Source: a virus. Taken from it: a stretch of DNA of 64,000 bases. Positions 24,647 to 59,614 of the stretch are shown here, piece by piece. Position 1 is the first letter of the stretch. Each line of letters starts with the position of its first letter. The notes below the pieces were generated by a model that was not told where the DNA came from, did not search any database, and saw only the letters and a list, made by a program, of their open reading frames with translations. The DNA lies in the IMG/VR virus record IMGVR_UViG_3300049846_002130, positions 64,001 through 128,000 of that record, one strand, 5' to 3'. The position numbers were made by a program, and so were the translations under genes.

Positions 24647-25094
24647 GTATATAAGTATATCCTAATGCCAGAGCATCTGCTTCATTATCATCTTTTGCTT
24701 CGAAGGAAAAGGTTTTGTTAGCCCACAAAATCATTTCTTCTTTTTGCGCGCGCCCATTACCAGTACAAAATTTCTTAGCTTGAGTCGGGGCAATACCATA
24801 TATGGGAATGTCTTGAAGATATGTCGTGGCCTGGAGCATTGAGACAATTCCGCCATACACTAAGGCAGCTTGTGAACTACTCCAGCGTTTAACAGCCTCG
24901 TATACAACTGTGTCTGGTTTATAGTAAACCAGGAGATTTTTGAATGCCTCAAGAGCATTATTAAATCTTTGTCCAGAATGCTGATTCTTTATTGTAGAAA
25001 AATTAAGAACCCCGCTAGAAACCCTTTGAGAGTCTTCAAAGAAAGCCCAGCCACAAGTGGTTGCTGGGTCTATTGATAATACTCTACTACTCAT
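24543..25094 (-). CDS. ruvC: RuvC-like Holliday junction resolvase
   Basis: VLSIDPATT, VVYE, PTQAKKFCTGNGRAQKEEM, DDNEADALA. Confidence 0.9.
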   Translation of the reverse strand: MSSRVLSIDPATTCGWAFFEDSQRVSSGVLNFSTIKNQHSGQRFNNALEAFKNLLVYYKPDTVVYEAVKRWSSSQAALVYGGIVSMLQATTYLQDIPIYGIAPTQAKKFCTGNGRAQKEEMILWANKTFSFEAKDDNEADALALGYTYIHERANLQKPADNPSGTSKSSKPKRSRKNISTTDS

Positions 25095-25672
25095 TGAATA
25101 CTCCTATATGGAATAATCTTGTCTACAAGTTTATGCTTTTTGGCTTCACGAGCTGTAATGTAATTATGTGTTGTGCTTGTTCCAAATATATCTGCAAAGT
25201 TTTGTTTGTTTATATTTAAACGTTTGGAGATAAGTTCCTGCATTTGGGTATTGCACCATTTATAGTGTTTATAAAGTTCTTCGCCAGCATTGGCACTTTC
25301 TACTATGTTCCAGCTAATCACGTTGTGGTAGAAGAACGTAGTGGCAGGAGTGCACTGTCTAATATCTCCCGCCATATAAACAAGTAGTGCAGCTGATCCG
25401 ACAAATCCAACACCAAAGGCCAATATTGGATTAGGAACTGTTCTTAAGATATCAAATATTGCAAGACCAGCATAGAAGCTGCCTCCAGGAGAATTAATAA
25501 TAACCTGTATGGGGGCAGTTTTATCCAGGGTCTGCAGGGTTAGTATTTGGCCGATTGCCTTGGAAGCTCCTTCGTCTGTTATTTCTCCTGTAATTTCTAC
25601 AGAACGAGTAGTGGGTCCAAAGTAGGAATTTTCTTTTGGCCAAAGTTGAAATTCAGGTTGAGATTGACTCAT
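25091..25672 (-). CDS. clpP: ClpP-family protease subunit
   Basis: INSPGGS, GSAA (catalytic Ser), FFYHN (catalytic His), ITAREAKKHKLVDKII. Confidence 0.9.
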   Translation of the reverse strand: MSQSQPEFQLWPKENSYFGPTTRSVEITGEITDEGASKAIGQILTLQTLDKTAPIQVIINSPGGSFYAGLAIFDILRTVPNPILAFGVGFVGSAALLVYMAGDIRQCTPATTFFYHNVISWNIVESANAGEELYKHYKWCNTQMQELISKRLNINKQNFADIFGTSTTHNYITAREAKKHKLVDKIIPYRSIQ

Positions 25673-51103: not shown

Positions 51104-51134
51104 AAAGTGGTCGGAGATTAACTCCGACCACTTT
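51104..51134 (-). terminator. Probable terminator closing the Ubl operon
   Basis: 13-bp perfect stem aaagtggtcggag/ctccgaccacttt overlapping the stop at 51118. Confidence 0.65.
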
Positions 51135-51291
51135 CTACCTGTATGTTCCAAGCTTTTAATCCTCTATAAACTTCATACATTTTTATATCAGGATTTTGTT
51201 TACATCTTTCGATGAAGCCAGGAACATTGGCTTTGATTTGAGATAAGGCTTCTTTACATTGCTTAGGGGAATATACTTCCGTCCCAAACAT
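51118..51291 (-). CDS. Small hypothetical protein coupled to Ubl
   Basis: ATG at 51291 overlaps the Ubl TAA (TAATG); 57 aa. Confidence 0.55.
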   Translation of the reverse strand: MFGTEVYSPKQCKEALSQIKANVPGFIERCKQNPDIKMYEVYRGLKAWNIQVESGRS

Positions 51292-51512
51292 TAGAAAGCG
51301 CCTTTGGATCCCTGGACTGCCCAAATCTCTTCTACGCCATCTACACAGGTAGTAGAGAACTCACTAGGAGCTACCTCAGTTTCGCCACCAAGAAGAATCT
51401 TATAGGTGCTATCGATCTGTAGGTGAGACACTACATCTTGAACGGTAGTGCCCTGGGTAACTTGGACTGTCTTGGTGTTCCCCGCGGGAACAAATAGTAC
51501 ATGAATTGTCAT
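51291..51512 (-). CDS. Ubiquitin-like (beta-grasp) protein
   Basis: 73 aa; TIHVLFV / TKTVQV / TVQDVVSHL / YKILLGG / EIWAV beta-grasp order; tail QGSKG-AF; adjacent to E1. Confidence 0.8.
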   Translation of the reverse strand: MTIHVLFVPAGNTKTVQVTQGTTVQDVVSHLQIDSTYKILLGGETEVAPSEFSTTCVDGVEEIWAVQGSKGAF

Positions 51513-52222
51513 TCTATCTCCTTTAAGTTGTATTGCTTTACAAATAGTTTACTATCTTTCATAACTGTAATTGTTCCATATGGATATTTAAAGGCACTAG
51601 TTGTTGCTTTAGCAACCAGTAGCGTACAAATATATTGTACCATATAGGCAGATATCGTAGTTACAAGAGTGGAACATAGACGCTGATTACAAGGGCCTTC
51701 TGGAATGAGGCTATCATCCATAAAGCTATCTGTCCACTGTCTATATAGTTCAGAGTTTAAAGGATTTATTACATGTATTTCTCCATGTTCAAATCCAAGG
51801 CGTGCTTCAATAGCTAACAGTATATTTGTGTTATACAAGATACCTTGTGATATATCTTTTCGACTCTTCATAGAGTCGGTAGCTATTATTAAAAAGCCCT
51901 CCACATGCGCAGCATCAGCTGCGCTAGTATAAAACCTATTATATGTTTTTACTTCTATGTCTGGATTAAATTCACGAAGCAACTCTGACAATGCTTCTAC
52001 TTTAGATTTTCCTATATGTTTGGGAAAGAACTGCTGATTTGCTAGATTATAGTCTTCAACAACATCTGCATCATAAAGAACAAACTTTTTAAATCCCATA
52101 CGGGCCGCGATCATAGCAACATTAGAGCCAACACCCCCACATCCAACAATAACTATTGGATGTGTTATCATATTTGGATGTAGCCATCCAGAATGTCTTA
52201 GAAATGATGGCTTATTCTCCAT
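51509..52222 (-). CDS. E1-like / ThiF-family adenylyltransferase
   Basis: IVGCGGVGS, YDADVVEDYNLANQ, GKSKVEAL, ATDSMKSR; candidate Cys in EGPCNQRLC. Confidence 0.92.
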   Translation of the reverse strand: MENKPSFLRHSGWLHPNMITHPIVIVGCGGVGSNVAMIAARMGFKKFVLYDADVVEDYNLANQQFFPKHIGKSKVEALSELLREFNPDIEVKTYNRFYTSAADAAHVEGFLIIATDSMKSRKDISQGILYNTNILLAIEARLGFEHGEIHVINPLNSELYRQWTDSFMDDSLIPEGPCNQRLCSTLVTTISAYMVQYICTLLVAKATTSAFKYPYGTITVMKDSKLFVKQYNLKEIE

Positions 52223-52733
52223 ACTCGATTCCTTTAAAGAGCATTAATAGTTCTTTTAATACTTTTACTTTTTCTGTAGAGCTAGATTCTTTAAATACGG
52301 AGTTATCAACAAGATATAATGTTGTAGCTAAAAGTAAAACTAATACATTTGCATCAACAGCAGTTGTAGAAAACATCTTAGTTATTTCTGATAAGCTTAC
52401 TGGCTCAAATATATCTTTTATTGGTACTTTCTTTTCTTTAGCCGAAGTAACTATACGATGAAGCCTTATTGTAATACCTAGCCATCGTAATGCTTTATTT
52501 CTATCAAGTCCCCAACCTTTCAATAACAAAAGGAATCTATCTAAATGAGTCTGGATAGATGAAGGAGTCATTGCTTCCACTAAGGATTCACCTGCTTCGA
52601 GTAGGTAGCTAAGTTTATATGGCTCGAAATCTGGTGACTCAATAATTTTAGTAATGAATTGATTTTTATTTATAAAGTCTATCTGTTGTTTATCAAATAG
52701 ATTTATAAATTTATAGTTACTTCGGCCTAGTGT
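52212..52733 (-). CDS. Helical domain, probably the -1 frameshift extension of the JAB protein
   Basis: Frame is open 51 codons upstream of the annotated GTG (52580), back to the G-GGA-AAA site at 52739-52733. Confidence 0.55.
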   Translation of the reverse strand, partial: TLGRSNYKFINLFDKQQIDFINKNQFITKIIESPDFEPYKLSYLLEAGESLVEAMTPSSIQTHLDRFLLLLKGWGLDRNKALRWLGITIRLHRIVTSAKEKKVPIKDIFEPVSLSEITKMFSTTAVDANVLVLLLATTLYLVDNSVFKESSSTEKVKVLKELLMLFKGIEYGE

Positions 52734-53467
52734 TTTCCCATATAGTGAAACACAAAATCAGTTTGATCAGTAGTCGTTGTAGTGTCTTTCGAGGTCGTCG
52801 TACCAGCATACACGCTCTGAGCTAAAGGGGCGGGTGGACTTCCTCCAGAAGTTACTGTAACTACAGAACTCTTTTTACTAACCAAAGAGCTGATAGCACT
52901 ATCTATTTTCTTATAGTTATAGCTGTTTTCAACAGCTATTGGAGGCTGCTCGATTATAATCCCATCTAGACTTGGATCAAAGACTCTGCAATAAATATCA
53001 CGTTTCTGATTAAAGATTAGCATTGCTTTTGGTGTAGTAGCATCTTTAATTAGAGCTGTCCAGTTTTCTTGATCAGTACCAGTAGGCTTTGCTTCCATAT
53101 TAACATGGGAATGGCACCAAGCTCCTGCCTCAGACATCAAAGTCTTAAGCTCCGTAGCAGTAAGATTACGGTCTTTCTTAAGTTGTTGCCACATCTCAGC
53201 TAAGTCTGCTGGCTCACTATCAACTGTTATTGTGGTAACAGTTTGCTTTGGTATAAAGATATCACTAATTCGATAAAATATCTTACCGTTTTGACGCTCT
53301 GAATAATCTGGTATTATTCTAGAGTACCACTGACCCTCAAACGTCTTAAGTTCATCTACAAAGTATTCGCTTAACTCTAAACATTCTTGATCAAAAACCA
53401 CATAATATTTATAAGCAGTAGTAAGAGTTGGAGTCCTTTCTGCTATTAGTTTCTTAGATAGTGTCAT
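52727..53467 (-). CDS. JAB/MPN+ metallo-isopeptidase
   Basis: FEGQW, ISDIFIPKQTV, WCHSHVNMEAKPTGTD (JAMM HxH-x7-S/T-x2-D). Confidence 0.88.
   Translation of the reverse strand: MTLSKKLIAERTPTLTTAYKYYVVFDQECLELSEYFVDELKTFEGQWYSRIIPDYSERQNGKIFYRISDIFIPKQTVTTITVDSEPADLAEMWQQLKKDRNLTATELKTLMSEAGAWCHSHVNMEAKPTGTDQENWTALIKDATTPKAMLIFNQKRDIYCRVFDPSLDGIIIEQPPIAVENSYNYKKIDSAISSLVSKKSSVVTVTSGGSPPAPLAQSVYAGTTTSKDTTTTTDQTDFVFHYMGKH
52733..52739 (-). promoter_or_regulatory. Candidate -1 ribosomal frameshift heptamer G GGA AAA
   Basis: X-XXY-YYZ in the correct frame, one sense codon before the JAB stop; -1 frame open for 173 codons. Confidence 0.6.
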
Positions 53468-53474
53468 CTATTTT

Positions 53475-55175
53475 TTAACCTTCTTCGTAAAGTGGAAACC
53501 ATGTATACTCTGCTCCCCACTGGTCCTTACTGTTAACCGATGTAACCCATGAATCAACTGCGTAAAACAACTGACCCAAATCTCCCTCAGAGATTGCCCT
53601 TTTAATATTTGCTTCTGCTTCTCCGAAACAAATTTTAGTTGGTTTATTATAAGCTGATTTTATGCTTTTGACATCTTTTCTATTCATAGCTGTTGCAGCT
53701 GAGTGTGGATGAGCCTTGATATTTACAATATCTCCTATAGCTGGAGAGATACCTATAATAGAACTTAAATCTAGAGGATATATTTTTCCAATTAGATCTC
53801 CTCTATAAGAATAACCAATACTTATTCTGTAGGGTCCTGCTACAACTAAAGTTGTATTAGTTCCTTTTTCTGCTTTATCAACATATAGAATTGAAGGCTT
53901 TATAGTCTGCAGCTCAATATTTAAACTTTGAATTCTATCTTTTTCTTCTATAAGCTCTTTTAAAAAGATACTGTATTTATCTTCTGTATTTAAATCTAAC
54001 TCTGTATAAGAATTATACATGGTCTCTATAGTAATAGCTTGTAAGCTATAATTAGATAAAAGTCCAAGGCCCAAAAATTTACAGAATGTTTTTGTATTTT
54101 TAAGTGTATTAAGATATATTTCTGCAGCTAAGTTACTATTGGTTTTCGCTATAGTTAAACTTTCTTTAATCTTTTGATGGGTTTCTAGATAACCTTTAAG
54201 CTTTAATTCAAGATCTTTAATAAGATTTTGATTACTTTCTACATTTTTTGTAACTGAAAGATCCTCAGAAAGAAGGGTATTTAAAAGATTAGTTTTAGTT
54301 TGAAATTCTTTTGCTCTTTCTTTTAATAAGATATATTCTTGTGATGGTCTTGGAATAAAGAGAGGCTCAGCTTTAAAGTCTTTGTCTACTTGTAGCTCAG
54401 TATCAATCTTATTTGCATCTTCTGGTGTAAGTAGCTCTGCTAAAACATTCCAGTTTTTAGTTAAGCTATTAAGATTAGTTAGGTCAATAGGCTTATTGAA
54501 AGCTGCGGCCCCACTATTAAGATACTTAATCATAAACTCGTGAATAGTTTTACCATAGGTGGCATATAGCTTTGCACTACATTTTGGTAAAACCATTACA
54601 TTGTGATTAACTATAGTATTATTAGCTTTTATAAATGGTAGGTTTAAGAAGAATACTTTTGGTGTCCTTGGATTCAAGGGCAAGTCTTCAACAACCACAT
54701 CCTTTAGAGAATTGGTCACGATATCGAAAACTGTAATACTATCTTTTGGTAATTGAGTTTTTAATATATTTAATAATGAATTATTAGAAAAGATAAAGGT
54801 TGAGTAGTCTCCAACATGACCATTAACTTTAGAACACCAACTTAATGCTTCTGTATACTTTATTGAATGCCAATCTTTGTCTAGTAGACTAGTTAAGCTT
54901 TCTAACTGTTTATAACTTAAATTAGGTAAGCTTGGTATTTTAAAATTAGGTAGTGTTGGATGTATGAATAGCAATATCTTAGGAATAAGATTGCTATAGT
55001 ATAATTCTCTTCCTCCTGGAAGTGTTTGGGGCTCAAAGGTGGAGGAAAGTGAAATTTTTGATTCTACGTAAACGTTATTTTCTTTTCTTCTATACATAAC
55101 TAACTGTTTAGTAGCAGACTGTGCTTCTAAAAAGTGGTTGCCTATTAATGCGTCAGTTGATAAAACAATACTCAT
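53475..55175 (-). CDS. Large protein with C-terminal E2 (UBC-like) domain
   Basis: GPYRISI...AHPHS...KICFGE...W...N..D.WG resembles the E2 HP(N/H)...C motif; located between the JAB gene and upstream operon genes. Confidence 0.65.
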   Translation of the reverse strand: MSIVLSTDALIGNHFLEAQSATKQLVMYRRKENNVYVESKISLSSTFEPQTLPGGRELYYSNLIPKILLFIHPTLPNFKIPSLPNLSYKQLESLTSLLDKDWHSIKYTEALSWCSKVNGHVGDYSTFIFSNNSLLNILKTQLPKDSITVFDIVTNSLKDVVVEDLPLNPRTPKVFFLNLPFIKANNTIVNHNVMVLPKCSAKLYATYGKTIHEFMIKYLNSGAAAFNKPIDLTNLNSLTKNWNVLAELLTPEDANKIDTELQVDKDFKAEPLFIPRPSQEYILLKERAKEFQTKTNLLNTLLSEDLSVTKNVESNQNLIKDLELKLKGYLETHQKIKESLTIAKTNSNLAAEIYLNTLKNTKTFCKFLGLGLLSNYSLQAITIETMYNSYTELDLNTEDKYSIFLKELIEEKDRIQSLNIELQTIKPSILYVDKAEKGTNTTLVVAGPYRISIGYSYRGDLIGKIYPLDLSSIIGISPAIGDIVNIKAHPHSAATAMNRKDVKSIKSAYNKPTKICFGEAEANIKRAISEGDLGQLFYAVDSWVTSVNSKDQWGAEYTWFPLYEEG

Positions 55176-55178
55176 TTG

Positions 55179-55637
55179 TTACCCATTGTTAATAAAAGCT
55201 TTTGCTAAGTTTTCAATAAAATAATTAAGCACAAGGTTTCTTGATTTAGTATCATCAAGAATTTTAGGCCCTAAGAGAGAGATACCTAATTTAGTGGCTG
55301 AATTATTTTTTCTGTTATCCAGTCCAAAGTCTTCTAAGATCAGATCTACTTTTTTAGTATCAAGATAAATAAACTCTTTATTTAAGATTGTTTTAATTAT
55401 TCCTGCAGGCATGGGGAATAAGGTTGCTGCACCACGCGCAAAACAAGCACTTGACTGAAAATCAAAATATGGAGAAAGAATGTTTATTACTTCAGTATCC
55501 AACAAGCAGCCTTCTCTCATATAATAACCTAACAAAGCTTTCTGTAGGTTTGAGTAAACAAATGGGTTATTTAAATCCCATTTGTTCATATATATACTCC
55601 AACACATCTGCCCCATCAGGGGCATTGATAAGCTCAT
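55179..55637 (-). CDS. Hypothetical protein in Ubl operon
   Basis: 152 aa, coupled. Confidence 0.45.
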   Translation of the reverse strand: MSLSMPLMGQMCWSIYMNKWDLNNPFVYSNLQKALLGYYMREGCLLDTEVINILSPYFDFQSSACFARGAATLFPMPAGIIKTILNKEFIYLDTKKVDLILEDFGLDNRKNNSATKLGISLLGPKILDDTKSRNLVLNYFIENLAKAFINNG

Positions 55638-55833
55638 CTATATCTATAGATATACCTATCGAATAGCAGATAGGACAAATATTACTTATATCGTCTCTAG
55701 TTGCTTTATAGCCACATTCTAATTCTGAACATATAAAGTACTTAGAAGCCAATTCCTGGTTTTCTGCTAGGGGTGGCTTTAGATTTTCTACTAATGACAA
55801 ATTCTTCATCCTTAGCAATATGTTTCTGTACAA
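55567..55833 (-). CDS. Zinc-ribbon protein
   Basis: CSELEC...CPIC; start uncertain. Confidence 0.5.
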   Translation of the reverse strand: MYRNILLRMKNLSLVENLKPPLAENQELASKYFICSELECGYKATRDDISNICPICYSIGISIDIDELINAPDGADVLEYIYEQMGFK

Positions 55834-57046
55834 GAAGTAGTTTTAAGTTTTTTTCTATTGTTCTTATACTGTCGTGAGTTAGTAGATTACTAATATCTAA
55901 GTCATTAGTAATAGTGTCTGAAATAGATAATTCTTTAGAAATCTTTGGAATAAGTTTGTTTTTTATAAGTTCCTTAAGCTCTTCAGTAGAATAGTTTCTG
56001 AAATGAACTTCGGTTAATCGATCTCTAAACGGCTTAGATAGTTTAGTATTGTCATTACTTGTAAATATAAAGGTAATGTTAGAAACATCAATAGGTTGAT
56101 TTATATAAGCATCTACCCAATTGGTATTCTGGCTTGGATCTAATAAACTTAAAAAGCTATTTTGTACTTCCGTGGAGCTTTTATCTATCTCGTCACATAC
56201 AAGAATTGGGTTTAAGCATTTGGTATTAATTAGTTCTTGAACTATAATTCCTGGAGAACTATTTGTATACGTTCTTAGGAAGCCAGAAACATAATTTTTA
56301 TCAGTCTTATCTCCGAGACTAAACACTCTCATTGGAGTTTCTAGTAGCTTTGCTAAATCATATGCAAACGTAGTTTTACCTACACCAGGAGGCCCACTAA
56401 ATAATAATGGTGGAAGGCCAGGCTTATCTAAGAAATAAGAGTAGCGTATGGTTAAGTACAACATAAGCTGATCTTCTTTTGATAAAGGTAAGACTTCTAT
56501 AAGATTTTTTATCTCTCCAATAGCATATTTTAAAGGTAGAGTTGTTTTAGGGATTTGGTCTAGGTACTGAATATAATTATTTAGATTATTATATTCAGTA
56601 GATCCAGGAACGAGTTTAGATAAACTGGACTTTAAAGAAAGCAACTTATTTGTTTTTTCTAAAAGAAACATAAGTGCTTCTTGAGAAGATAGCTCAAGAT
56701 ATTTTGCTCTTTCCTCTAAAGATGTCAGTATTAGTTCTGCTTTGCTATCTAATTCTTCAGTTGAAAAGCAATTAAGTGCATTAGCTTCTAGGGGCTCTGC
56801 AGAAATTGGTTCATATATATTACTTGTATAGTCTCTACAGAATATTTTAGATGTTGGTACAAATCTAATATTAGAGTCTTCAGGAAAAGCAGAGCCTATA
56901 TAACCTATAGTAAGTAGTTTGTCTTTATATGTAATTAGAACTACTGCTTCATATGGTTCTTGCGAATAGGGCTCAATATTAATTAATTTAAAACTTTGTA
57001 AGTATATAGGAATATGTACTTGTAATGGGACTATATGTATTCTCAT
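55742..57046 (-). CDS. Lon-type AAA+ ATPase lacking the protease domain, C-terminal IGF
   Basis: PGSTEYNNLNNYIQYLDQIP, GPPGVGKT, YTNSSPG.IVQ, NPILVCDEIDK, LLDPSQN..WVD.Y, FRDR; ends RKPGIGF. Confidence 0.85.
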   Translation of the reverse strand: MRIHIVPLQVHIPIYLQSFKLINIEPYSQEPYEAVVLITYKDKLLTIGYIGSAFPEDSNIRFVPTSKIFCRDYTSNIYEPISAEPLEANALNCFSTEELDSKAELILTSLEERAKYLELSSQEALMFLLEKTNKLLSLKSSLSKLVPGSTEYNNLNNYIQYLDQIPKTTLPLKYAIGEIKNLIEVLPLSKEDQLMLYLTIRYSYFLDKPGLPPLLFSGPPGVGKTTFAYDLAKLLETPMRVFSLGDKTDKNYVSGFLRTYTNSSPGIIVQELINTKCLNPILVCDEIDKSSTEVQNSFLSLLDPSQNTNWVDAYINQPIDVSNITFIFTSNDNTKLSKPFRDRLTEVHFRNYSTEELKELIKNKLIPKISKELSISDTITNDLDISNLLTHDSIRTIEKNLKLLLVQKHIAKDEEFVISRKSKATPSRKPGIGF

Positions 57047-57540: not shown

Positions 57541-58112
57541 GCAATGTCTTCTACCAGAGTACTTCTCTTACTAGGATTTCTAAGAATATAGCTTGGATGA
57601 TATGTAGTCAAGACCAATATATCTTGTATAGTAAATCTTTGACTAGCAAAGGCTCCAAATCGATCTATTCTTGCTAGGCGACATAATGTATCAGCTGCCA
57701 CACGGCCCAGTCCAAGTATGAACTTAGGTTTAACCAACTGTATTTGTTTTACAAGAAAAGGCTGACAAGCTAGTTGTTCTTCAAGCAAAGGGGTTCTGTT
57801 ATAAGGTGGCCGATGTTTAACTACATTGGTAACAAATGTCTTATGTCTTTTGTTATCCCACCCAGCTTCAGTCAAGACTTGCTGAAGTAGCTGACCGGCG
57901 GGCCCGACAAGGGGCACGCCGAAGCCGTCATCATAAAGCTCTGGATTACTTTCTACCTCACCAGGAGCCTCAGCACAGATAAATAGCTCAGCAGAGCTAT
58001 GGCCCTCTCCAGGCACCGGAAGCCATGGGCTAGAGTGATCGGTATTTAATATACAGCCTGTGCACTGCTTAATTTGGGTTCGAAGACTCTGTAGTGAGTA
58101 AGGCTCTGACAT
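57510..58112 (-). CDS. udg: Uracil-DNA glycosylase family 4
   Basis: CTGC, VPGEG, AEAPG, LVGPAG.LL, TNVVKHRPP.NR.P, TYHPSY. Confidence 0.93.
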   Translation of the reverse strand: MSEPYSLQSLRTQIKQCTGCILNTDHSSPWLPVPGEGHSSAELFICAEAPGEVESNPELYDDGFGVPLVGPAGQLLQQVLTEAGWDNKRHKTFVTNVVKHRPPYNRTPLLEEQLACQPFLVKQIQLVKPKFILGLGRVAADTLCRLARIDRFGAFASQRFTIQDILVLTTYHPSYILRNPSKRSTLVEDIAWAISIVEEL

Positions 58113-59126: not shown

Positions 59127-59143
59127 AAATAATATGAGAGCGC

Positions 59144-59614
59144 CTATTCAGCGCTCTCATCCTCCCATAAAGATGGAATCTGCTGTAAAGCTAGATCCCT
59201 AATTGTACGAATATATTCCTGTATAGCAAGAATATCTTTAACCACATAAATCTTTTCTAAGAAGTCTCGTCCAGATACAGTAGGTATTTGGGAAATCCTC
59301 ATTGCCTTTTTAGTAATGAAGTCATCTTCATCTAAACTCAAGAAGTAATTAAATTCGTTGAGTGTATGATGGGCTTCATATGGACTAACTTCATGTAGCT
59401 TGTTATAGAGTTTAGCTACAAGGGTTGCCATCGGTCCGCAAGGTAAAAGTTTAGTAGTAAGAGTAAAACTACCAATAGCTATTCTTCTAAACAAATCAGC
59501 ATAGGGTAATAGAATTGCAAATAAAGCATCGTCAACATTCTGACTAGTAGCATTATCTAAATCTTTGTTCTCTAGGTTTGGATTATAGGCAATAGCCTCT
59601 GGTTTCAGTTTCAT
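59144..59614 (-). CDS. Hypothetical protein
   Basis: 156 aa; GGAGG RBS. Confidence 0.5.
   Translation of the reverse strand: MKLKPEAIAYNPNLENKDLDNATSQNVDDALFAILLPYADLFRRIAIGSFTLTTKLLPCGPMATLVAKLYNKLHEVSPYEAHHTLNEFNYFLSLDEDDFITKKAMRISQIPTVSGRDFLEKIYVVKDILAIQEYIRTIRDLALQQIPSLWEDESAE

Follow-up and report, generated by a model that had tools for sequence, protein, structure and literature searches.

A large uncultured freshwater phage encodes a LonA-type AAA+ motor that lacks the Lon peptidase and ends in its place with the tripeptide Ile-Gly-Phe (IGF). The gene for this protein, P0001, lies in a 64,000-nucleotide window that spans bases 64001–128000 of IMG/VR record IMGVR_UViG_3300049846_002130, a complete virus sequence of 183,528 bp whose ends are direct terminal repeats (G000 below). 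It shares a gene run with a ubiquitin-like (Ubl) conjugation cassette, a position kept in about ten distinct phages. Lon is the textbook example of motor and peptidase fused in one chain. P0001 retains the motor, and its tail is predicted, with about even chances, to dock it on a separate ClpP of phage or host origin.

A LonA-Type Motor without Its Peptidase

The domain structure of P0001 was read from its sequence, from an alignment of 40 family sequences, and from an AlphaFold2 (AF2) model built on that alignment, which has a mean predicted local distance difference test score (pLDDT) of 89.9. The features are as follows.

55742–57046, minus strand: P0001, protease-less LonA-type AAA+ ATPase, 434 amino acids (aa), stop codon at 55742–55744 (Pfam, phmmer, fold, NCBIfam)
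56804–57046, minus strand: N-terminal β-rich domain, residues 1–81, a shortened LonA-like N-domain (AF2 pLDDT 92–96; 7fid alignment from residue 1)
56432–56761, minus strand: helical region, residues 96–205, including the LonA-type three-helix bundle ahead of the AAA+ module (AF2 model, 4ypn)
55997–56407, minus strand: AAA+ α/β domain, residues 214–350 (motifs, Pfam, phmmer, alignment)
56372–56395, minus strand: Walker A, GPPGVGKT, residues 218–225 (family alignment)
56189–56194, minus strand: Walker B, D285/E286 (family alignment)
55811–55987, minus strand: AAA+ lid (small helical) domain, residues 354–412, with sensor-2 R395 (alignment and model)
55745–55810, minus strand: disordered basic C-terminal tail, residues 413–434, ending I432-G433-F434 (codons 55745–55753); proposed peptidase-docking peptide (model, conservation)

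Pfam AAA matches residues 214–347 (6.4e-14). The closest solved structures by phmmer are all LonA AAA+ modules, including Bacillus subtilis LonA (3m6a, 7.7e-33) and human LONP1 (about 1e-31), and they cover query residues 131–403; the same structure-sequence search gave far weaker matches to Midasin (about 1e-9) and to the D2 domain of ClpA/ClpC (about 1e-6). The NCBIfam model TIGR00763, "lon", matches at 1e-41, but with 143 bits against a cut-off of 608.

The model agrees. Foldseek placed Lon structures on top (E about 4e-24), and exhaustive structural comparison superposed the Lon AAA+ domain 6n2i on model residues 132–419 (Z = 26; root-mean-square deviation 2.9 Å over 284 residues). Full-length Lon 7fid is colinear with the model over residues 1–426, and 4ypn aligns with residues 133–351 (Z = 24.9). 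ClpX reached Z = 13.8 against 26 for Lon, which places P0001 outside the ClpX and Hsp100 clades of AAA+ proteins.

All the parts of a working motor are in place. Besides the Walker motifs, P0001 has the pore-loop RTY at residues 258–260 (Y260), sensor-1 N331, the arginine finger R343, and sensor-2 R395; each of these motifs is invariant or at least 90% conserved in the family alignment. In the N-domain, the Pfam family PF02190 (LON_substr_bdg) has no match in P0001, and it matches in seven of the 40 family members.

The chain ends 22 residues past the lid, where the LonA peptidase domain would start. Its last residues, from translation of the minus-strand open reading frame (ORF), are ...SRKPGIGF*, and pLDDT falls below 50 over most of residues 413–434. 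No match to the Lon_C family was found anywhere in the complete 183.5-kb genome, nor in G001 and G009, two further IMG/VR phages with IGF-type motors; control genomes did match. P0001 is thus a protease-less LonA-type motor with all ATPase and translocation motifs intact. An earlier note, made from the letters of this DNA alone, had described a LonA-type helix and AAA+ motifs, a missing Ser-Lys peptidase, and an IGF end, and this description is upheld by the Pfam match, the LonA structure matches, the fold, and the Lon_C scan.

In comparison with LonA proteases (3m6a; LONP1 7ksm and 9cc0; M. taiwanensis Lon 7fid; TIGR00763), then, P0001 is alike in fold, in domain order (N-domain, helical region, AAA+, lid), and in motor motifs including RTY. 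It differs in three respects: the Ser-Lys peptidase domain is missing; a disordered basic IGF tail takes its place; and the N-domain is shortened.

A Conserved Terminal Tripeptide

ClpX (IGF) and ClpA (IGL) dock flexible internal loops into hydrophobic clefts of ClpP (PMC7707817). The tail of P0001 carries the same kind of tripeptide at the end of the chain, and the question is whether it is there by accident.

A word-indexed search returned a single full-length relative, P0002 (44% identity), in which the IGF end is kept although the preceding linker has diverged. Exhaustive HMMER searching added P0122, which ends LGF, along with dozens more 50%-identity cluster representatives of 430–600 aa; these show no Lon peptidase motif, and at their ends [I/L/V/F/M]G[F/Y] comes after basic residues. 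Across 40 IGF-tailed members, at about 25% identity to P0001, G433 never varies and conservation of F434 is 90% or more; these members were picked for the motif, and the unselected counts are those of the following comparison. The pattern [ILVMF]G[FY] falls within the last ten residues in 56 of 90 protease-less single-AAA Lon-like proteins, as against one of 163 peptidase-bearing Lons, where the composition-matched chance expectation is 0.8%. The earlier note had warned that terminal IGF motifs also occur on AAA+ proteins with no known ClpP link; the peptidase-bearing Lons, with their single case, do not bear this out.

The variants seen are IGF, LGF, VGF, FGF, MGF, and IGY. The docking tripeptides of Clp ATPases have the form [I/L/V]G[F/L], which these variants resemble. 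In most members a net-basic stretch precedes the motif, which starts 33–51 residues (median 44) after the sensor-2 arginine and is followed by zero to six further residues. This latitude at the end of the chain fits binding in a cleft with no need of a free carboxylate. To judge from its conservation, the terminal IGF is a functional element and not an accident.

Among GenBank phages, megablast with the region and tblastn with P0001 gave ordinary Lon fragments only, and no relative; IMG/VR scans with the single proteins P0174 and P0188 gave no match; and in a viral scan with the trio P0001, P0002, and P0122 the window's own subclade gained no close relative. Names in the ESM Atlas are generic only. 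No description of IGF- or HbYX-tailed Lon motors (the latter are treated below) was found in the literature. The sole paper that covered all the topics was set aside, as it concerns plant N-domain-only LON-like proteins and not tailed Lon motors.

A Sister Clade with Proteasome-Type Tails

The strongest indirect argument about the tail comes from other viruses. Most protease-less Lon-like ATPases in the viral contig collection end in hydrophobic-Tyr-X (HbYX), with the tyrosine strictly penultimate (...GMYT, ...SLYA, ...HLYT). The strict HbYX end was present at about 16 loci in one scan and in 28 of 31 in another, many of them on contigs labelled as giant-virus metagenome-assembled genomes. Scoring followed the strict penultimate-tyrosine rule; a looser pattern hit 72 of 163 canonical Lons, with much redundancy among these. 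These ATPases range from 335 to 806 aa, some of the ORFs being cut at contig ends, and come from IMG/VR loci L012–L018, L020–L024, L028, L033, L035, L068, L155–L171, L175–L178, L181, L189, L190, L193, L204, L206, and L211.

In a tree of AAA+ modules, tail type follows clade. The IGF clade (support 0.96) holds 45 leaves, 44 of them with IGF tails; the HbYX clade has support 0.85; and peptidase-bearing Lons are placed apart. The long-branched P0001, P0002, and P0122 group as a trio (support 1.0), with no firm placement deeper in this tree. P0001 itself ends G-I-G-F, with no penultimate tyrosine, and so falls outside the HbYX definition.

HbYX is the motif that docks proteasome activators on the 20S core (PMC12352868). 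Two peptidase-less Lon clades thus each bear a terminal peptide of a type known to address a chambered peptidase, which argues that the IGF tail is a docking element. By analogy, this supports the view that IGF and HbYX tails are docking peptides that stand in for the lost peptidase domain. The HbYX-tailed viral Lon motors, to go by their tails, may be virus-encoded activators of the 20S proteasome; no paper describing the clade was found in the literature.

The likeness to established HbYX activators (PAN, Rpt subunits, Mpa, Cdc48) lies in an AAA+ ring whose flexible C-terminal peptides enter pockets of a chambered peptidase, and the sister viral Lon clade has such a tail. P0001 differs in that it lacks the penultimate tyrosine, its family tolerates a motif up to six residues from the end, and the phages carry no proteasome-family peptidase.

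Linkage to a Ubl Conjugation Cassette

Downstream of the ATPase gene lie the parts of a Ubl conjugation system, and hairpins bracket the whole run.

59134–59160, minus strand: strong terminator-like hairpin upstream of the gene run
55567–55833, minus strand: putative 88-aa ORF overlapping the 3' end of the ATPase gene (last ~30 codons) in another frame, with a four-cysteine zinc-ribbon-like motif, CSELEC...CPIC, and ending ...EQMGFK
55179–55637, minus strand: 152-aa ORF between the ATPase and E2-like genes
53475–55175, minus strand: E2-like protein, 566 aa; HPH...C is invariant in its family; a probable E2
52212–53467, minus strand: JAB/JAMM-type peptidase in two ORFs (52727–53467 and 52212–52580), with the motif H-S-H-x7-T-x2-D
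51509–52222, minus strand: ThiF-type E1, 237 aa (Pfam ThiF, 5.2e-28)
51291–51512, minus strand: Ubl precursor, 73 aa, ending ...GSKG-AF
51104–51134, minus strand: strong terminator-like hairpin directly past the Ubl gene, closing the run

The run between the hairpins, about 8 kb, holds genes for uracil-DNA glycosylase, the ATPase, and the whole cassette, all co-directional and overlapping or abutting, in keeping with terminator-promoter cassettes at other places in the genome. The sole other minus-strand hairpin candidate inside it, at 58000–57983, is weak. PDB sequences, searched with profiles for the JAB-like and the E2-like family, returned nothing useful.

The arrangement is not peculiar to this phage. 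In G000, G001, and G009 the order from ATPase through E2-like protein, JAB, and E1 to Ubl is colinear, at 25–42% protein identity. A metagenome survey then used the lineage-specific E1 as its handle, and about 20 loci had enough upstream sequence to be read. A Lon-like ATPase is present in ten of them, always on the same strand, 4.0–6.2 kb upstream of E1, and always IGF-tailed. All told, 13 of 13 IGF-type genes with readable context, from about ten distinct phages, lie on the same strand 3.5–6.2 kb upstream of E1. Loci with and without the ATPase share flanking ORF families, so that the difference is a clean presence or absence at one slot. No small ORF is specific to the ATPase-bearing loci, and no adaptor candidate emerged there.

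In the E1 tree, the ATPase is scattered through the main clade (support 0.96), and one monophyletic group (support 1.0) and a further single locus lack it. The ATPase is therefore ancestral in this lineage, with at least two losses. The genomic association of ATPase and Ubl cassette is solid. The placement of the ATPase in the same gene run as the Ubl system, as the earlier note had it, therefore stands, with the position kept among the distinct phages and the run bracketed by hairpins in the window. The proposed co-occurrence of ATPase, ClpP, and Ubl genes stands in part: the ATPase–Ubl link is present, and the ClpP part is uninformative since ClpP is constant in the lineage.

ClpP as a Candidate Partner

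The window contains one gene for a chambered peptidase, and a second AAA+ unfoldase lies outside it.

25091–25672, minus strand: divergent ClpP-family serine peptidase, 193 aa, candidate docking partner (Pfam CLP_protease, 3.1e-25; 89.6 bits versus 20.2)
L076:1405–2040, L088:1468–2100, L087:1462–2097, and L096:1453–2100: ClpP orthologs
G000:C1:154936–157161 (L007:1177–3402, minus strand), outside the window: true ClpB disaggregase without N-domain, 741 aa

The gene at 25091–25672 is the sole ClpP-family gene of the complete genome. No gene of the proteasome/HslV family was found in G000, G001, or G009; of the chambered-peptidase families, ClpP alone was found here, and it is present in all three ATPase-bearing IMG/VR records. 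Its co-occurrence with the ATPase rests on six IMG/VR records.

The 741-aa AAA+ protein was considered as the true partner of this ClpP and rejected. It matches Thermus thermophilus ClpB (1qvr) at 7.7e-228, over its whole length from ClpB residue 153 onward. Its M-domain is complete, and the alignment is unbroken at the place of the ClpP loop of ClpA and ClpC; it is a ClpB with no docking loop. No ClpX-, ClpA-, or ClpC-type partner was found in the complete genome, where ClpB is the only other AAA+ unfoldase. The earlier claim of a ClpP gene at 25091 with no ClpX or ClpA partner is thereby extended from the window to the whole genome.

The G000 protein retains Ser93 and His116 of the catalytic triad, and the position of the triad aspartate is occupied by histidine. 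Relatives have Y/F there in the MAFFT alignment, or S/N in the register set by a conserved E-A. At the equivalents of Escherichia coli ClpP residues 60, 62, 82, 90, 112, and 114, positions that we take to line the docking cleft, G000 has Q, I, T, F, Q, and T. Positions 62, 82, and 90 read I/T/F, F/I/I, and Y/T/V in phages with the motor and L/Q/H in those without it, a hint only, from six genomes. The AF2 model of the phage ClpP, from a five-sequence alignment, was too poor to be used (pLDDT 55.7). The tail could equally well be aimed at the ClpP of the host.

A Proposed Detachable Motor and Its Rivals

The mechanism proposed here begins with an exchange: in place of the covalent Ser-Lys peptidase domain of LonA, the chain has a flexible, basic tether, about 20 residues long, with a hydrophobic-Gly-aromatic peptide at its end. 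P0001 would form a hexameric unfoldase. By LonA geometry, which sets the facing side, six tails would emerge from the lid domains at the ring's exit face, the place of the peptidase ring in LonA, and insert into hydrophobic clefts on a separate chambered peptidase, much as ClpX and ClpA insert their IGF/IGL loops into ClpP. The likeliest peptidase would be ClpP, either the divergent one of the phage (25091–25672) or that of the host. We put such docking, predicted by analogy with the Clp loops, at an even balance.

What the motor would do there is a more tentative matter. The ATPase gene is an ancestral but dispensable accessory of the lineage's Ubl cassette, always at the cassette head. Its favoured role would be to unfold proteins handled by the Ubl system and deliver them to ClpP, with the JAB peptidase recycling the tag, as Rpn11 does at the proteasome; that the motor feeds Ubl-handled proteins to ClpP is possible, though rather unlikely. 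The wider proposal must be called doubtful: that viruses repeatedly made of Lon a detachable motor, exchanging its built-in peptidase domain for a short docking peptide suited to the chambered peptidase of the host type, with IGF for ClpP in phages and HbYX for 20S in giant viruses, and that the IGF motor is the unfoldase arm of a tag-and-degrade pathway made up of Ubl, E1, E2-like protein, JAB, Lon motor, and ClpP.

Several observations weigh against this picture. On the side of the cassette, the Ubl genes persist in two clades after loss of the ATPase, which means that the kit can work without the motor. Moreover, the placed IGF-type genes all belong to one phage lineage in which gene order is widely conserved, so adjacency may partly be inheritance. 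On the side of the peptidase, the ClpP gene is never next to the ATPase but lies 30–46 kb away, and it is kept in G006 (100% complete), G008 (87%), and G007, relatives without any Lon-like or Clp ATPase. (The same searches picked up the ATPases of G000 and G001, as a positive control.) ClpP, then, does not depend on the Lon-type motor.

The phage ClpPs are also unusual in themselves. None of the six has an acidic residue at the triad aspartate position, and their N-termini are unlike that of canonical ClpP. In G000, isoleucine and threonine replace the equivalents of E. coli Y62 and F82, so that two aromatic pocket residues are missing. On ClpP subfamily models the six score 88–98 bits, far under the equivalog cut-offs (88.7 versus 228 for the best NCBIfam ClpP model with G000). 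These scores are nevertheless closer to true ClpP subfamilies than to the ClpP-related head-maturation proteases (46–58 bits; 57.9 against a cut-off of 120 for G000 on NF045542), and they are below both sets of cut-offs. PHROGs, for its part, ranks the phage ClpPs highest as head-maturation proteases. Its gene has RuvC and ThyX as neighbours, on the opposite strand and about 53 kb away from the block of portal and major capsid protein genes, and no other prohead protease was recognised between those two genes in the head module. The phage ClpP may have a morphogenetic role in head maturation.

Two rivals concern the partner of the motor and its tie to the Ubl kit. It might be a protease-independent segregase or remodeller of the Ubl pathway, similar to Cdc48/p97, that pulls out or unfolds proteins bearing Ubl or otherwise targeted, and whose IGF binds the E2-like protein, the JAB peptidase, or the small downstream ORFs. 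Such a role would account for the strict positional linkage to the cassette, for a ClpP that is neither adjacent to the ATPase nor dependent on it, and for the non-canonical pocket of that ClpP; the longer E2-like proteins of ATPase-less relatives (960–1115 versus 566–767 aa) could even be a compensating change in a partner. It is nonetheless unlikely. In its hydrophobic-Gly-aromatic form the motif matches ClpP-docking tripeptides, the tether emerges at the ring's exit face, the side proper to a peptidase, and the sister clade with proteasome-docking HbYX argues that such tails address chambered peptidases; nor is any cassette protein specific to the loci that bear the ATPase. The other rival keeps ClpP and dispenses with Ubl: a general unfoldase, dependent on phage ClpP or hijacking that of the host, would degrade host or phage proteins taken up through the Lon-type N-domain, and its place beside the cassette would be inherited synteny. 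The family does appear to keep a LonA-type substrate-binding N-domain, the analysis identified no element that would bind Ubl, two clades have a Ubl kit that works in the absence of the ATPase, and gene order near the cassette (Whirly and neighbours) is broadly kept in the lineage. Against these points stand the 13 of 13 readable IGF-type genes at the one slot, the terminator-bounded run that the ATPase shares with the cassette in the window, and the fact that the ATPase keeps its slot in G000 although other blocks, such as the ribonucleotide reductase genes, have moved relative to the cassette. This explanation too seems improbable.

A last alternative removes docking altogether, and we consider it very improbable. 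The tail might be a degron or regulatory tail, recognised for example by host ClpX in the manner of MuA-type C-terminal signals, or it might serve in autoinhibition or assembly of the hexamer. It is disordered in the AF2 model, and its basic residues and hydrophobic end resemble known ClpX C-terminal recognition signals. This would leave unexplained, however, an invariant glycine and near-invariant aromatic residue at about 25% identity, the tolerance of zero to six residues past the motif, and the clade-wise swap to strict HbYX. Docking on ClpP stays the preferred account of the tail, at the strength given above.

Comparison with Known Systems

If P0001 does dock on ClpP, it would share the logic of ClpX, ClpA, and ClpC: a hexameric unfoldase that places six flexible hydrophobic-Gly-aromatic elements on a separate ClpP ring. 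The differences are that its motor comes from the Lon clade, that the tripeptide lies at the C-terminus of the chain and not in an internal loop of the large domain, and that docking is a prediction. To our knowledge, every known partner of ClpP comes from the ClpX or Hsp100 clades. A motor of the Lon clade, docking in trans by means of a terminal IGF, would be a new class of ClpP activator, and a natural experiment in the modular assembly of AAA+ proteases.

The genes beside the ATPase (Ubl precursor, E1, probable E2, and JAB), taken with the unfoldase and a chambered peptidase, match in their parts the 26S proteasome with Rpn11, Pup-Mpa-20S, and the archaeal SAMP system with PAN/Cdc48, in which proteins are tagged, unfolded, freed of the tag, and degraded. 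In these phages no tag receptor was identified, and the Ubl kit also occurs without the ATPase. Should the parts work together, they would constitute a minimal proteasome-like tag-and-degrade system in a bacteriophage. The fixed position at the cassette head makes it testable whether prokaryotic-type Ubl tags, like ubiquitin and Pup, ever send their carriers to an unfoldase and protease.

The bacterial Bil/Bub systems and Cap2/Cap3 of CBASS (cyclic-oligonucleotide-based anti-phage signalling systems) are Ubl-conjugation systems (PMC10557695, PMC11601596, PMC10097602). The gene sets of prokaryotic-type E1, E2, JAB, and Ubl are alike. Those systems are bacterial, anti-phage, and without an associated unfoldase, whereas the present cassette is encoded by phages, and a Lon-type motor stands at its head in much of the lineage.

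What is new here is the lineage-wide linkage of ATPase and Ubl cassette, together with the HbYX sister clade. The presence of that clade on giant-virus contigs suggests the same trick aimed at eukaryotic proteasomes. For practical use, the tail peptide would be a candidate ClpP-activating ligand, and the motor a possible tool for targeted degradation.

Variation in the Cassette among Relatives

The cassette varies at several places outside the ATPase slot itself. Between that slot and the E2-like gene, some relatives carry a gene of about 250–310 aa (L009:10944–11762, L095:11601–12359, L081:4891–5664, L122:5925–6659, L101:3896–4837) with the signature SGSY...DIDxYF, typical of Pol-β-type nucleotidyltransferases, followed by a conserved ORF of about 70–90 aa. 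The two small ORFs that G000 has in this place are not detectably related to the gene with the nucleotidyltransferase signature or to its follower.

The E2-like proteins are longer where the ATPase is missing, at 960–1115 aa (L081:5876–8866, L083:5992–8874, L111:5541–8888, L119:5937–8864), than where it is present, at 566–767 aa (53475–55175 in the window).

More distant phages, on human-gut and other contigs of 43–174 kb (L134–L138, L143), have a lineage-type E1 and a reduced kit. An 864–877-aa Walker-A protein in the equivalent slot of gut-phage loci was tried as an unfoldase and rejected as SbcC/Rad50-like. In L134–L138 and L143, E1 adjoins a dUTPase, a superfamily 2 helicase, and an SbcC/Rad50-like ATPase, and not the E2-like gene or a Lon motor.

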